A program made the translations under genes and the position numbers. A stretch of DNA of 54,865 nt. Origin: an uncultured Candidatus Cloacimonadota bacterium. GTDB taxonomy: Bacteria; Cloacimonadota; Cloacimonadia; Cloacimonadales; TCS61. The notes beneath the pieces are model-generated. The model was not told where the DNA came from. It searched no databases and saw only the letters and a program-made list of their open reading frames with translations. Of the stretch, positions 40,194 through 48,542 are shown piece by piece. Numbering within the stretch: the stretch's first letter is position 1; each line of letters opens with the position of its first letter. Location: positions 1 through 54,865 of the forward strand of contig CAZOCS010000002.1 of the NCBI GenBank assembly GCA_964578365.1, written 5' to 3'.

Positions 40194-41396
40194 TTAAACC
40201 TTCTCGAGTACAACCGCAATACCCTGTCCAACACCAATGCACATTGTACAAAGTGCCATTTTTAAATCTGATCGCTGCATTTGATAAAACGCTGTAGTAA
40301 TCAATCTTGCCCCGCTCATTCCAAGTGGATGTCCAAGTGCTATTGCACCACCAAGAGGATTTATTCGGGGATCGTTATCCGAAAGACCAAATTCACGAGA
40401 ACAAGCTAATGATTGTGAAGCAAAAGCTTCATTAAGTTCTATAATGTCCAAATCATCAAATGTAAGATCTAAACGTTTAAGCAGTTTATTAGTAGCCGGA
40501 ACCGGCCCTATTCCCATAATACGAGGCGGAACGCCTGCTGTTTCCATTCCAAGAATTTTAACTTTTGGAGTTAATCCATATTTCTTCACAGCATTTTCAG
40601 ATGCTATAATTAAAGCTGCAGCACCATCGTTAATACCGGAAGCATTACCAGCTGTAATTGATCCGTGTTCACCGGAAATAACTCTTAAAGATGCTAATTT
40701 TTCTAGTGATGTAAGTCTGAGATGCTCATCTTTATTAACCGTTAACGGATCACCTTTACGCTGAGGAATAGTAACCGGAATTATTTCATCATCAAACATT
40801 CCACTATTTTGAGCATCAAGAGCCTTTTGCTGGCTCCAATGAGCAAATTTATCTTGGTCTTCACGACTGATTTCAAATTCTTTTGCTATGTTTTCCGCAG
40901 TCATGATCAATGGATCGGTACCAAATTTTTTATTAAAGATCTTATTAATGAAACGCCACCCAATTGTAGTGTCGTGTACTTCCGGAGCTCTTGAGAAAGC
41001 CTTTAGTGGTTTTCCCATAACATATGGAGCGCGTGACATACTTTCTACTCCTCCGGCAATGATCAACTCCGCTTCACCAGCTTTAATGGCTCTTGCAGCA
41101 GTACCGACAGCATCCATTCCCGAACCGCAAAGTCTGTTTATTGTAGATCCTGGAATAGTTTCTGAAAACCCAGCTAGTAAGGAAGCCATTCTAGCAACAT
41201 TACGATTATCTTCACCTGCCTGGTTAGCACATCCCATAAGGATGTCATCTACAGCAAGCCAGTCAATATCAGGATTTCTTTTTACAAGTTCCCTTAAAGG
41301 GATCGCTGCCAGGTCATCAGGTCGGATTGATGAAAGGCCGCCACCATATCGTCCTACAGGAGTTCTTATTGCATCACAAATAAATACTTCAGTCAT
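40194..41396 (-). CDS. Acetyl-CoA C-acetyltransferase / 3-ketoacyl-CoA thiolase
   Basis: 400 aa. VFICDAIRTPVGRYGG, active-site NRLCGSGMDA, GNASGINDGAAA, CIGVGQGIA. Confidence 0.9.
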   Translation of the reverse strand: MTEVFICDAIRTPVGRYGGGLSSIRPDDLAAIPLRELVKRNPDIDWLAVDDILMGCANQAGEDNRNVARMASLLAGFSETIPGSTINRLCGSGMDAVGTAARAIKAGEAELIIAGGVESMSRAPYVMGKPLKAFSRAPEVHDTTIGWRFINKIFNKKFGTDPLIMTAENIAKEFEISREDQDKFAHWSQQKALDAQNSGMFDDEIIPVTIPQRKGDPLTVNKDEHLRLTSLEKLASLRVISGEHGSITAGNASGINDGAAALIIASENAVKKYGLTPKVKILGMETAGVPPRIMGIGPVPATNKLLKRLDLTFDDLDIIELNEAFASQSLACSREFGLSDNDPRINPLGGAIALGHPLGMSGARLITTAFYQMQRSDLKMALCTMCIGVGQGIAVVLEKV

Positions 41397-41426
41397 ATTT
41401 TTTACCTCATATCAATTATTTTTATT

Positions 41427-42767
41427 TTAGAGTTCGGGTTTAATAAATTTAAAACCATTAAGCATTGCTCTGGTGAGTATATCAACTTCCTTCTGTGTGA
41501 TAGCAGTTGAAAACATGCAGGTACAAGTGTTAACCATCATTATTTTTTCATCAATAAAAAGATAATCGAGTAATTTTTTTATTAAGAGCGATGTTTCTTT
41601 TGTTTGGAACGCTTCGCGGTAAGTGGTTGGTGGTGTTTCCGTTAGGTGAATGCGGAACATTGAGCCAGCACCGGTAATTGAAACAGGAACATCGGCAATT
41701 TTAATTGCTTCTCTAATTTGACTAATTGCTCTCTGGGTTAAGGCATTTAAATCTAAAACGGCTTGTTCATCAAATAATTCCATAGCAACGCGTCCTGCCG
41801 TCATTGTTATTGGGTTGGCAGAAAAAGTACCTGAATGTGGAAATAGAAGTTTACTTTCGCTTGGATCGAGTACTTTCATAATATCTGCTCTACCGGCAAG
41901 AGCACCAACCGGGAAACCACCGCCTATCATTTTTCCCAAGGCAGTAAGATCTGGTTTTACGGGATAGTTTTCTTGTGTACCGCTGTAATTTACGCGTAAT
42001 GTAACAACTTCATCGAATACAAGCAAAGCACCATTTTTACGGGTCCATTTGTATAAGGCTTCAATAAAATCTGTATTTGCTTTAATAAGCCCTACTCGAT
42101 GCGGGACAGGATCAATTAAAACGCATGCTATATCTTCAGCATGCTGATCTAAAATGGAAATAGTTCTTTCGATATCATTAAAAGGAAATATTATCACATC
42201 ATCTAGAACGCCTTGAGGAGTACCATTTGCAAGGGGAACACTATTGGGTTTATCTAAATCTCCCCAATTTGATGGATTGGCTTTTTGGCTAATCTCTGCA
42301 AAGTCGTAAGTGCCATGATAAGCTCCTTCGGCTTTGGCGATTTTAGGTTTGCCAGTATAGGCTCTTGAAGCCTTGATCATAGTCATTACAGCCTCAGTTC
42401 CAGAATTAACAAAACGTATCTTATCAAATCCCGGAACTCTAGCACACAATAGTTGTGCAAAAGCAACTTCAACTTCGGTAGCCATTGTGTAAGCTGTTCC
42501 TTTCTGTAATTGTTCAGTAACTGCATTCACTATCTGAGGATTTGCATGACCATGGATCAATGAAGCCATATTATTTGCAAAGTCTATACGCTGAATGCCA
42601 TCGATATCATTTACATAACATCCGGAAGCTTTTGAAACATAATATGGATGTGGTTTACGAAAAATTGTATTTCTGCTCACACCACCGGGAAGTACATTGC
42701 AAGCTTGCTTATATATCTCTTCGCTTGTATGTGTCTTCCCTTTTGAATCTATGTTTTTAATAGTCAT
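41427..42767 (-). CDS. Class III PLP aminotransferase, glutamate-1-semialdehyde 2,1-aminomutase (HemL)-like
   Basis: 446 aa. LPGGVSRN, VNSGTEAVM, FDEVVTLR, PLP-lysine motif LGKMIGGGFPVGA. Confidence 0.8.
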   Translation of the reverse strand: MTIKNIDSKGKTHTSEEIYKQACNVLPGGVSRNTIFRKPHPYYVSKASGCYVNDIDGIQRIDFANNMASLIHGHANPQIVNAVTEQLQKGTAYTMATEVEVAFAQLLCARVPGFDKIRFVNSGTEAVMTMIKASRAYTGKPKIAKAEGAYHGTYDFAEISQKANPSNWGDLDKPNSVPLANGTPQGVLDDVIIFPFNDIERTISILDQHAEDIACVLIDPVPHRVGLIKANTDFIEALYKWTRKNGALLVFDEVVTLRVNYSGTQENYPVKPDLTALGKMIGGGFPVGALAGRADIMKVLDPSESKLLFPHSGTFSANPITMTAGRVAMELFDEQAVLDLNALTQRAISQIREAIKIADVPVSITGAGSMFRIHLTETPPTTYREAFQTKETSLLIKKLLDYLFIDEKIMMVNTCTCMFSTAITQKEVDILTRAMLNGFKFIKPEL

Positions 42768-47126: not shown

Positions 47127-47222
47127 TTTTCTCCTATAATTTACCACATGATGCTATTTGTACAAAACGTTCCCAAAAAGACTTAGGAACGCAATGTAAT
47201 AAATTTAGTTTTCATTTTTAAA

Positions 47223-48542
47223 TCAATAAAATCTTTCAATAACTTTAATATCGAGATTTTCTAATTCTTTAAGAACAGGATTATAGATATTTGGTAAAGT
47301 CGGCATATAAACACCTTTTACAGTAATTTTATCTTGAAGTATCATATGAACACCAATTGCAGCTGGAAGTGAAACGGTTCTTGCCATTGATGAATCACCG
47401 TTAGGAATTCCGTAATCTATCATTGTGGATGTGATCTTTTGAGTTTTATTTGGATACTCAGCAACAAATTGATGATGAAGAACAAGCAGGTCTCGTTCAC
47501 CTTCTTCGTAAGACATTTTATCAAGCATGATCGCAGTGAGTACATCAACAGCACCACCTTTAGTTATTGGAATTGGAGTTTCATCAAAGAAGCCCAACCA
47601 TTCAAATTTTTTCAGGATAACACTTTCTGCAGGAAGATCATACTTTTCCATTAGAAGTTCTTTGAGGCATTTATCTTTATCTGTTTTGAACATTTTTGTA
47701 AGAATGAATTCTTTTACAGTTCCGTTCAGGTTATCAAAGATTTCGTCTTCTTTATAAAATCCCATTTGAGACATAATATACCAGGTATTACAATGGCTGA
47801 TATTCCTAAATGTTCCACGGTACATTGTCTTCACATCTTTTAAATTATAAAGATCAATATAATCGAGTGAATTACGATTTGGATATGCTTCGAGTGTACC
47901 AGCACCTTCTACATCAACAAACCAGTAATTATTGAAAAGGTTTTTCCCCTCAACTTCAATGATCTTGCCGTCTTTCATAAATTTTGCACCATTTCCGGCT
48001 GCCTTCAGAACACCCTTTGGAGCCCAGGAAAATTTGTATCCAAGCGGATTTGTATTTGCTTCCGGAGCTGGCAATCCACCACAATAACTCATAAAGCTTA
48101 CGATTTTTCCACCTTCATTTTCTACATGATGAAAGATCTTCATTGCACTCATGTGATCGATACCGGGATCTACTCCGATCTCGTTCAGAATAATAATTCC
48201 TGCATCTTTTGCTTGTTGATTTAATGCTCGCATTGCAGGGCTAATATAGGATGTTGTAACCATATTCGTTTTGAATTCAATACATTTTTTGGCAACTTCT
48301 ACGTGCAGAGTTGCCGGAAGTAAACTCACAACCAGATCACTATTCTTAACGAATTCTTCCATTGCCGCTTTATCATCACTTAAGAATTGCTTGGCAAATG
48401 CTTTTGGATGCGGTTCTGCAAGTTTTTCTGCTTTACTTAATGTACGGCTGGCGATCGTTACTTCATAACCTTTTCCCGCTAGATAATCTACCATTGGTTT
48501 TACTACGAGTCCTGCTCCGAATATCGTTACTTTTTTACTCAT
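47223..48542 (-). CDS. Saccharopine dehydrogenase/reductase (L-glutamate-forming, LYS9-like)
   Basis: 439 aa. KVTIFGAGLVVKPMVDYL, TTSYISP, NEIGVDPGIDHM, YKFSWAPKGVL. Confidence 0.75.
   Translation of the reverse strand: MSKKVTIFGAGLVVKPMVDYLAGKGYEVTIASRTLSKAEKLAEPHPKAFAKQFLSDDKAAMEEFVKNSDLVVSLLPATLHVEVAKKCIEFKTNMVTTSYISPAMRALNQQAKDAGIIILNEIGVDPGIDHMSAMKIFHHVENEGGKIVSFMSYCGGLPAPEANTNPLGYKFSWAPKGVLKAAGNGAKFMKDGKIIEVEGKNLFNNYWFVDVEGAGTLEAYPNRNSLDYIDLYNLKDVKTMYRGTFRNISHCNTWYIMSQMGFYKEDEIFDNLNGTVKEFILTKMFKTDKDKCLKELLMEKYDLPAESVILKKFEWLGFFDETPIPITKGGAVDVLTAIMLDKMSYEEGERDLLVLHHQFVAEYPNKTQKITSTMIDYGIPNGDSSMARTVSLPAAIGVHMILQDKITVKGVYMPTLPNIYNPVLKELENLDIKVIERFY

Follow-up and report, generated by a model that had tools for sequence, protein, structure and literature searches.

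Can an anaerobic bacterium break down lysine without any B12-dependent enzyme? In anaerobic digesters, sediments and guts, lysine ranks among the major substrates of fermentation, and the B12-dependent KamA/KamDE route is commonly regarded as the only way in which anaerobes degrade it; in clostridia and fusobacteria this route comprises KamA, KamDE, Kdd, Kce, Kal, an AtoDA-type CoA-transferase and a thiolase. The question is raised by a seven-gene operon in a 54,865-nucleotide stretch of DNA from an uncultured Candidatus Cloacimonadota bacterium (GenBank assembly GCA_964578365.1, contig CAZOCS010000002.1; we call this whole stretch the window). The assembly, labelled G000 here, comprises 2.8 Mb and is 84% complete. 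All on the minus strand, the genes encode saccharopine dehydrogenase (SDH), lysine-ketoglutarate reductase (LKR), a KamA-like radical S-adenosylmethionine (SAM) enzyme, subunits A and B of a CoA-transferase, a class-III pyridoxal phosphate (PLP) enzyme and a thiolase, an order already given by an initial annotation of the window and confirmed here, with no internal stops. That annotation had proposed a non-textbook lysine route needing no B12 enzyme, and our results support this: as it had noted, kamDE, kdd, kce and kal are absent from the operon.

Comparison of the genes with their relatives suggests that the operon probably serves a B12-independent, anaerobic route from lysine through saccharopine, 2-aminoadipate, 3-aminoadipate and 3-oxoadipate to succinyl-CoA and acetyl-CoA. 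LKR would convert lysine and 2-oxoglutarate to saccharopine, which the LYS9-type SDH would split into glutamate and 2-aminoadipate 6-semialdehyde. An enzyme encoded outside the operon, possibly an aldehyde:ferredoxin oxidoreductase (AOR), would oxidise the semialdehyde to 2-aminoadipate, which the KamA-like radical-SAM/PLP enzyme would turn into 3-aminoadipate by shifting the amino group from C2 to C3. A β-transaminase would pass this amino group to 2-oxoglutarate, leaving 3-oxoadipate to be activated with succinyl-CoA by a PcaIJ-type CoA-transferase, and a PcaF-type thiolase would cleave 3-oxoadipyl-CoA to acetyl-CoA and succinyl-CoA, so that the CoA donor is regenerated. In sum, lysine, two 2-oxoglutarate and CoA would yield two glutamate, succinate, acetyl-CoA and reducing equivalents.

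Enzymes encoded by the operon

The family assignments of the initial annotation held in profile searches, and both saccharopine enzymes that it named are present. LKR aligns over its full length with the LKR domain of human AASS (PDB 8DDA, E 1.3e-80; yeast LYS1 reaches only 5e-20), and SDH matches yeast LYS9 (2AXQ, E 2e-93), Magnaporthe saccharopine reductase (1E5L, 3e-90) and the SDH domain of human AASS (5L78, 3e-76). Because of this full-length similarity to solved enzymes, both are, as far as homology can tell, genuine saccharopine enzymes. A polyamine (carboxynorspermidine) function of SDH, which the initial annotation had raised as a possible objection, was rejected: the corresponding model gave only 30 bits, and only for a third SDH-family paralogue in the window, located beyond the operon.

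The KamA-like protein has no Pfam match and remains below the curated cut-offs. It scores 83 bits on the KamA-family model TIGR00238 (cut-off 199.2), 68.4 bits on the lysine 2,3-aminomutase (LAM) equivalog TIGR03820 (cut-off 525.4), 58 bits on the glutamate 2,3-aminomutase model (cut-off 650), and 55-72 bits over the lysine, glutamate and arginine aminomutase and EpmB models as a group. When an AlphaFold2 model built from 24 homologues (pLDDT 80, pTM 0.83) was searched with Foldseek, the top matches were the chains of the LAM structure 2A5H (E 5e-12, target-normalised TM 0.63), the only strong fold match, the next hit having an E value of 1e-4. To compare the active site, we aligned the protein by MAFFT with four canonical KamA sequences of Cloacimonadota, all of which exceed the TIGR03820 cut-off. 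Across 24 family members, the cysteines of the [4Fe-4S] cluster (C222, C226 and C229, CxxxCxxC) and the SAM-binding GGD at residues 267-269 do not vary, and they line up with the corresponding motifs of canonical KamA. Also invariant in the family are R231, two residues past the third cysteine, and K458, the lysine of the canonical (G/E)GGGK motif, which we take to be equivalent to the α-carboxylate-binding Arg134 and the PLP lysine Lys337 of LAM, respectively. The canonical YQCD motif is changed to MYCAR, with Ala413 at the position of LAM Asp293 and an invariant Arg414 behind it, and VVDAP is changed to ITMTS, with Thr451 (serine in some members) at the position of LAM Asp330. These two aspartates presumably bind the ε-ammonium group of lysine, and the loss of both makes lysine an unlikely substrate. 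The residue pattern would fit an α-amino acid with an anionic rather than a cationic distal group.

Judged by these scores and motifs, the enzyme appears to be a distant branch of the KamA family for which no model has been made. At 90% identity its family falls into over 1,200 clusters, which are 63-90% identical across phyla. Clustering at 50% leaves one full-length representative (752 bits), the next full-length relative scoring 298 bits. Database entries of the family are named "hypothetical protein" or "lysine 2,3-aminomutase". One of the carriers, Prolixibacteraceae bacterium Z1-6, may be a cultured isolate.

In the model, the first 200 residues form for the most part confidently predicted helices. 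A portion of this region can be aligned with the N-terminus of canonical KamA, so that what looks like an extension comes to about 60 added residues and an insertion of about 26 residues. Weak sequence similarity to designed ankyrin-repeat proteins was seen for residues 55-108 (best E 3e-9), and no stretch passes alone. A second KamA-like family of about 440 aa (L086:7621-8955, L085:5146-6465) was found in 10 of 151 sampled Cloacimonadota genomes; it is 30-37% identical to the operon aminomutase, falls under all curated KamA cut-offs (TIGR00238, 137 versus 199), and has no informative gene neighbourhood in the Cloacimonadota loci examined.

The class-III PLP enzyme had been described as HemL-like and counted among enzymes that shift amino groups within a molecule. 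However, it stays under both hemL cut-offs (TIGR00713, 346 versus 527.3; NF000818, 335 versus 398). Its best PDB match is 6K8H (E 8e-114, 384 bits) with ForI second, and the β-transaminases 2YKU and 4AO9 match well, whereas true glutamate-1-semialdehyde aminomutase structures reach at most 244 bits. Given the cut-offs and the closer β-transaminase, we rejected a HemL identity, and with it intramolecular chemistry of the HemL type. The 6K8H structure is that of the Sphaerobacter thermophilus ω-transaminase StoTA, which deaminates β- and γ-amino acids, and for which R36, contacting the substrate carboxylate, N70, the catalytic K282, and T317 are singled out (PMC10589169). All four are kept in the operon enzyme, as R32, N66, K279 and T314.

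The thiolase exceeds the curated cut-offs for 3-oxoadipyl-CoA thiolase (NF006551, 683.7 versus 605; TIGR02430 pcaF, 661 versus 597), fails every acetoacetyl-CoA thiolase equivalog, and has an intact catalytic set (Cys90, the GHP histidine, and Cys386). The CoA-transferase subunits are well above their cut-offs (A, TIGR02429, 340.7 versus 128.5 bits; B, TIGR02428, 298.2 versus 243.55), and subunit B carries the TENG motif with the catalytic glutamate at residue 53; these two models cover PcaIJ and ScoAB alike and do not separate 3-oxoadipate from acetoacetate enzymes. A thiolase of the 3-oxoadipyl-CoA type points to succinyl-CoA and acetyl-CoA as end products. The initial annotation had offered, as an alternative, a route from lysine via 2-aminoadipate semialdehyde to acetoacetate and acetyl-CoA. 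This came close: the semialdehyde part stands, and the acetoacetate end gives way to 3-oxoadipyl-CoA cleavage.

Its first suggestion fared less well. According to this suggestion the operon is a hybrid of the clostridial fermentation, in which the KamA-like enzyme makes β-lysine, the roles of KamDE and Kdd are taken by the HemL-like enzyme together with the saccharopine-type dehydrogenases, and acetoacetate and acetyl-CoA are formed at the end. The KamA-family fold and cofactor motifs agree with this, the canonical pathway also closes with a CoA-transferase and a thiolase, and no canonical KamA, KamD or Kce turned up in the 84%-complete genome, where the KamD negative is weak because the KamD control matched in no control genome, and where Kdd and Kal were not searched. 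We nevertheless consider the hybrid barely credible, given an aminomutase that has replaced both ε-ammonium aspartates and is far below the LAM cut-off, a PLP enzyme of β-transaminase type, LKR and SDH that are close full-length relatives of true saccharopine enzymes, a thiolase of 3-oxoadipyl-CoA type, and the occurrence, described below, of the last five genes without adjacent SDH and LKR genes in five other phyla.

A resident SDH-LKR pair and a mobile five-gene cassette

The gene neighbourhood was surveyed by tblastn of the window proteins against 80 loci that encode a KamA-like relative. These loci belong to Cloacimonadota, Bacteroidota, Ignavibacteriota, Acidobacteriota, Balneolota and Edwardsbacteria. 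The five genes from aminomutase to thiolase, from here on called the cassette, are arranged in the same order in practically all complete loci, and SDH-LKR precedes them only in the six Cloacimonadota loci. Elsewhere, the sole recurrent neighbour is an XRE-HTH/cupin regulator directly upstream, found at 25 of the 80 loci. In a quick tree, the six copies from Cloacimonadota group together in a single clade (support 100) among Bacteroidota, with weak support for the nesting (82-84), and the other phyla are scattered, a pattern that fits lateral spread of the cassette. The seven genes are therefore not a single conserved set but two units, a resident SDH-LKR pair and a mobile cassette.

In three of the loci (L050, L067 and L074, from Prolixibacteraceae, Draconibacterium and a relative), the thiolase gene is followed on the same strand first by a gene for aminoadipate-semialdehyde (L-piperideine-6-carboxylate, P6C) dehydrogenase, which forms 2-aminoadipate, and next by a gene of the SDH family. 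The dehydrogenase exceeds the NF050084 cut-off of 730 bits (810 in L067, 802 in L050) and matches human ALDH7A1 with an E value of 6e-166. In L067, a LYS9-type SDH gene is also located divergently upstream of the cassette. Genome-wide, an LKR homologue was present in 17 of 17 cassette carriers and in 97 of 184 non-carriers in a sample of 201 genomes of the order Bacteroidales, and the closer LKR class in 15 and 47 of the same carriers and non-carriers, respectively. All five Bacteroidota carriers that were chosen separately have an LKR homologue, beside SDH in both loci examined (G151 and G154), as do four of five carriers from other phyla.

Bacteroidota possess two diverged SDH-family paralogues of about 38% mutual identity. 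In L067 (8139-9470 and 17183-18532), SDHa is the copy upstream of the cassette and SDHb, which is 34% identical to the window SDH, the one after the P6C dehydrogenase gene. In G151, two SDH-family genes follow LKR in tandem (L097:9083-13349).

Within the phylum we used a sample of 151 Cloacimonadota genomes. Canonical KamA exceeds its cut-off in 94 of them, mostly in families that lack LKR, and LKR is present in 47. In the family to which G000 belongs, canonical KamA was found in four of the five LKR-less genomes. Only two genomes, G000 and G055, contain the cassette, and neither has canonical KamA. They belong to different genera, and congeners of both carry another module in its place. In G113, of the same genus as G000, the locus is syntenic, with HAD, SdpI, SDH (91% identity) and LKR (83%), and LKR is then followed by an acyl carrier protein (ACP)-CitE fusion, CitF and an Iso_dh homologue. 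A CitF-like gene was detected in 47 of the 151 genomes, 45 of these with LKR, and the only LKR carriers without one are G000 and G055. Between these two genomes, SDH and LKR are 77% and 70% identical and the cassette proteins 86-92%; in the closest relative, L002, SDH is 96% and the aminomutase 90% identical. The contrast in identity, together with the gene content of the congeners, fits a resident SDH-LKR pair next to which a laterally exchanged cassette displaced the CitEF-like module.

SDH-LKR and CitEF-like genes lie on the same strand in G113 (L101:8589-14972), G050 (L102:2085-8690) and G001 (L103:8364-19594), where an HD protein and two aconitase (homoaconitase)-family genes are added. 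Genes for IS200-like (Y1) transposases were seen near SdpI-SDH-LKR, between SdpI and SDH in G113 (L101:7492-7941) and beyond SdpI in G050 (L102:9456-10076), and in the corresponding intergenic neighbourhood of the window the initial annotation had noted repeat elements at 49448-49550. These elements may have a bearing on module exchange.

Curated models call none of the CitEF-like proteins citrate lyase, isocitrate dehydrogenase or aconitase (CitE, 278 versus 443; CitF, 499 versus 501). The best matches of the Iso_dh homologue are homoisocitrate dehydrogenases, and the hydratases belong to the homoaconitase family. The module may thus run the α-aminoadipate route in reverse with a homocitrate lyase, or simply supply 2-oxoglutarate. 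In the reverse route, 2-oxoadipate would be reductively carboxylated to homoisocitrate, homoaconitase-family enzymes would isomerise it, and a citrate-lyase-like homocitrate lyase would release acetate and 2-oxoglutarate. It is possible, if doubtful, that LKR-bearing Cloacimonadota use two interchangeable and undescribed 2-aminoadipate modules directly after SDH-LKR, either the cassette or, in 45 of 47 genomes, this reverse route, and that a tungsten AOR replaces ALDH7 in both.

The separate histories of the two units also raise the thought that they are mere neighbours, that the cassette acts on an unrelated α- or β-amino acid, and that their fusion in Cloacimonadota is incidental. SDH-LKR occurs in 47 of the phylum genomes and the cassette in only two, and most cassette loci have no lysine gene nearby. 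Yet the two units form a single operon in all six Cloacimonadota loci, with only 16 nt between LKR and the aminomutase in the window, a Bacteroidota clade has extended the cassette with P6C dehydrogenase and SDH genes, and cassette and LKR co-occur genome-wide, which makes a chance association quite improbable.

Semialdehyde oxidation, substrate and direction of flux

Several points weigh against the proposed lysine pathway. The operon itself contains no gene for converting the semialdehyde to 2-aminoadipate, and searches for the aldehyde dehydrogenase (ALDH) family (Aldedh) gave no match in G000 (84% complete), G055 (96%) and four congeners (91-98%). This absence is real, because it is shared by G055 and the four congeners, yet the family is present in 92 of the 151 Cloacimonadota genomes. 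AOR matches number three in G000, whose AOR genes are on contigs C72 and C37, and two in G055. As the genome has no ALDH-family gene, an AOR is our candidate for the oxidase. The five Bacteroidota cassette carriers that were sampled have several ALDH genes each.

The three loci with a linked P6C dehydrogenase represent a single evolutionary event and count once, because they form one clade in the tree. In the Bacteroidales sample LKR is widespread (57%), and since related genomes are not independent, the cassette-LKR counts overstate the significance of their co-occurrence. Moreover, every step of the route is deduced by comparative genomics, and 3-aminoadipate is, to our knowledge, not an established metabolite of lysine catabolism. 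What we observed are gene content and order, family membership, active-site residues, synteny and co-occurrence.

With regard to the substrate, the chain length accepted by the aminomutase cannot be read from its sequence, and Arg414 is, in the alignment, one position off LAM Asp293. The cassette might thus degrade another acidic α-amino acid, of which glutamate is the likeliest, by way of β-glutamate and 3-oxoglutarate, which would yield 3-oxoglutaryl-CoA or, once decarboxylated, acetoacetate and two acetyl-CoA; the adjacency of SDH-LKR would then reflect the glutamate that SDH releases. Glutamate 2,3-aminomutase is likewise said to have lost both lysine-binding aspartates and to have gained a basic residue, and the CoA-transferase models include the acetoacetate enzymes ScoAB besides PcaIJ. 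On the other hand, the aminomutase is as distant from the glutamate 2,3-aminomutase cut-off as described above, the thiolase passes the 3-oxoadipyl-CoA equivalog and none of those for acetoacetyl-CoA, and a P6C dehydrogenase is linked to the cassette in L050, L067 and L074. In addition, a general glutamate route would have no need of LKR, yet almost all carriers have it, and a C5 route would leave the succinyl-CoA donor unregenerated. A glutamate route therefore seems unlikely, and we favour 2-aminoadipate as the substrate because of the closed succinyl-CoA cycle, the operon fusion in six Cloacimonadota loci, the linked P6C dehydrogenase and the co-occurrence with LKR.

The resemblance of the CitEF-like module to the α-aminoadipate pathway raised the question of flux direction. 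All cassette steps are chemically reversible, and the operon could instead make lysine: succinyl-CoA and acetyl-CoA would be joined to 3-oxoadipyl-CoA and converted via 3-oxoadipate, 3-aminoadipate and 2-aminoadipate to the semialdehyde, the last step by an AOR using reduced ferredoxin, and then via saccharopine to lysine. True LysA was not found in G000, in which DapA was found, and is missing from 143 of the 151 phylum genomes, so that the diaminopimelate route to lysine may be closed to most of the phylum. AORs, which are able to reduce acids, are present where ALDH is not, and relatives have at the same position the homocitrate-pathway-like module of citrate-lyase-like, homoisocitrate-dehydrogenase-like and homoaconitase-family genes. 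However, the eight genomes with LysA above the cut-off are not tied to LKR, the lack being phylum-wide, and one of them is G055 (358 bits), which has the operon and, owing to its true LysA, does not need it for lysine synthesis. The Bacteroidota cassette is linked to a P6C dehydrogenase, which is oxidative and practically irreversible, and the five sampled carriers of that phylum have several ALDH genes; the XRE/cupin regulator at 25 of the 80 loci is typical of inducible catabolic operons, and the condensation by the thiolase is thermodynamically uphill. A biosynthetic role is thus highly unlikely in our view. The catabolic direction is favoured because the rarity of LysA is not tied to LKR, G055 has LysA, G000 has DapA, and the linked P6C dehydrogenase is oxidative. 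Like this direction, the substrates of the cassette enzymes and the identity of the semialdehyde oxidase are inferred.

Operon layout and comparison with known systems

The features of the operon and its flanks are listed in Table 1. The short spacers and the overlap of the two CoA-transferase genes reported initially were found again: in gene order, the junctions measure 75 nt, 16 nt, 30 nt, a 10-nt overlap (CoA-transferase A/B), 27 nt and 30 nt. The first of these becomes 96 nt when LKR starts at an ATG, seven codons downstream of the listed GTG at 47147, which is the likelier start because GGAG precedes it by six bases. The terminator noted after the thiolase gene was confirmed as a strong one, its hairpin and T-run located at 40167-40139 and downstream, 27 nt past the stop codon. 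This arrangement indicates that the seven genes form one transcription unit. A scan of the 5' intergenic region for sigma-70-type sites found no more of them than in shuffled sequence, and we therefore claim no promoter.

Table 1. Position and assignment of the operon genes and flanking features in the window
Feature	Position	Strand	Length	Basis or remark
Saccharopine dehydrogenase (SDH), LYS9 type	47223-48542	-	439 aa	Pfam Sacchrp_dh_NADP and Sacchrp_dh_C; PDB 2AXQ
Lysine-ketoglutarate reductase (LKR), AlaDH fold	45828-47147	-	439 aa listed; 432 aa from ATG 47126	PDB 8DDA
KamA-like radical-SAM/PLP protein	44204-45811	-	535 aa	Fold match 2A5H, cofactor residues; proposed 2-aminoadipate 2,3-aminomutase
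3-Oxoacid CoA-transferase subunit A (PcaI/ScoA family)	43457-44173	-	238 aa	TIGR02429
3-Oxoacid CoA-transferase subunit B (PcaJ/ScoB family)	42795-43466	-	223 aa	TIGR02428
Class-III aminotransferase, β/ω-transaminase type	41427-42767	-	446 aa	PDB 6K8H; proposed 3-aminoadipate:2-oxoglutarate transaminase
3-Oxoadipyl-CoA thiolase (PcaF/PaaJ type)	40194-41396	-	400 aa	NF006551, TIGR02430
Intrinsic terminator closing the operon	40129-40167	-		12-bp stem with 6 G-C pairs, 5-nt loop, T-run
AT-rich 5' intergenic region	48543-48744	-	202 nt	GGAG 8 nt before the SDH start codon
APC/SLC12-type transporter, beyond the terminator	37843-40071	-	742 aa	Pfam AA_permease and SLC12
Third saccharopine-dehydrogenase-family paralogue, PH1688-like	36673-37800	-	375 aa	PDB 3ABI, E 4.5e-66

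The transporter gene also follows the thiolase gene in other Cloacimonadota carriers (L002, L003 of G055, and L005), and its product is a possible importer of the substrate. Its SLC12 C-terminal domain is akin to K-Cl cotransporters and far under the cut-off of that model. The third SDH-family paralogue pointed out by the initial annotation is indeed present, with Pyrococcus PH1688 as its closest match. It is only 28% identical to the operon SDH, and was found in L002 and not seen at the G055 locus. We take PH1688 to be an L-lysine 6-dehydrogenase; the paralogue is possibly one as well, which would make it a second entry into aminoadipate semialdehyde, not an exit.

The enzyme families, the saccharopine first steps and the β-ketoadipate end-steps are known; new are the pathway architecture and the proposed specificities of the two middle steps. 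In the literature that we searched, whose coverage leaves out most subscription journals, we found no description of a 2-aminoadipate 2,3-aminomutase, of 3-aminoadipate as a lysine catabolite, or of the cassette. What the window contributes is the physical fusion of saccharopine genes to the cassette, and the replacement by the cassette of the citrate-lyase-like module of relatives. If the proposed pathway is correct, hundreds of mostly uncultured anaerobic species of Bacteroidota, Ignavibacteriota, Cloacimonadota, Acidobacteriota and other phyla would have a second, B12-free lysine route, in which the saccharopine pathway is joined to the β-ketoadipate end-steps by a new radical-SAM specificity and a new metabolite, 3-aminoadipate. 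It would also correct the widespread annotation of the KamA-like family, shift the predicted fermentation products from butyrate to succinate and acetate, and provide enzymes for β-amino dicarboxylic acids and adipate-pathway intermediates.

The saccharopine pathway is supposedly aerobic or eukaryotic. In animals and plants it consists of AASS, which combines LKR and SDH, followed by ALDH7A1/P6C dehydrogenase, and bacteria have monofunctional LKR and SDH. The first two enzymes of the operon are like these, and the proposed intermediates are the same as far as 2-aminoadipate, but the LKR and SDH genes are separate, unlike the fused AASS, and an ALDH7-type dehydrogenase was not found in this genome. 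Past 2-aminoadipate, the known route continues via 2-oxoadipate and glutaryl-CoA, whereas the route that we propose proceeds by a radical-SAM aminomutase and the 3-oxoadipate end-steps.

With the clostridial and fusobacterial lysine fermentation, which via KamA is the prevalent route in the same phylum as judged from the 94 genomes with canonical KamA, the operon has in common an anaerobic setting, an aminomutase-type radical-SAM enzyme, and an ending with CoA-transferase and thiolase. It differs in lacking KamDE, Kdd, Kce and Kal as well as any B12 enzyme, and in the proposed aminomutase substrate, 2-aminoadipate instead of lysine. The products would be succinate or succinyl-CoA and acetyl-CoA, compared to butyrate and acetate in the clostridial fermentation.

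The aminomutase shares with Clostridium subterminale LAM (2A5H) and the KamA family the fold, CxxxCxxC, GGD, the carboxylate arginine and the PLP lysine, and the 2,3-amino shift is likely the same chemistry. However, identity to 2A5H is only 17% in the structural alignment, the protein is about 120 residues longer, with extra N-terminal helices and an insertion, and it falls under every curated cut-off of the family, which includes glutamate and arginine 2,3-aminomutases, EpmB and AblA. For the class-III enzyme, StoTA is the closest solved relative among the β-transaminases compared (2YKU and 4AO9 being the others), with the four named residues shared. StoTA was tested on monocarboxylic aromatic and aliphatic β-amino acids (PMC10589169), whereas for the operon enzyme we infer activity on a dicarboxylic one, 3-aminoadipate. 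Finally, the CoA-transferase and thiolase pass the family cut-offs of the β-ketoadipate end-steps (PcaIJ and PcaF/PaaJ) and keep the catalytic motifs, and the reactions and products that we propose are identical to those of that pathway. The known β-ketoadipate pathway, however, is fed by aerobic cleavage of aromatic rings, whereas here 3-oxoadipate would arise from an amino acid in a strict anaerobe.

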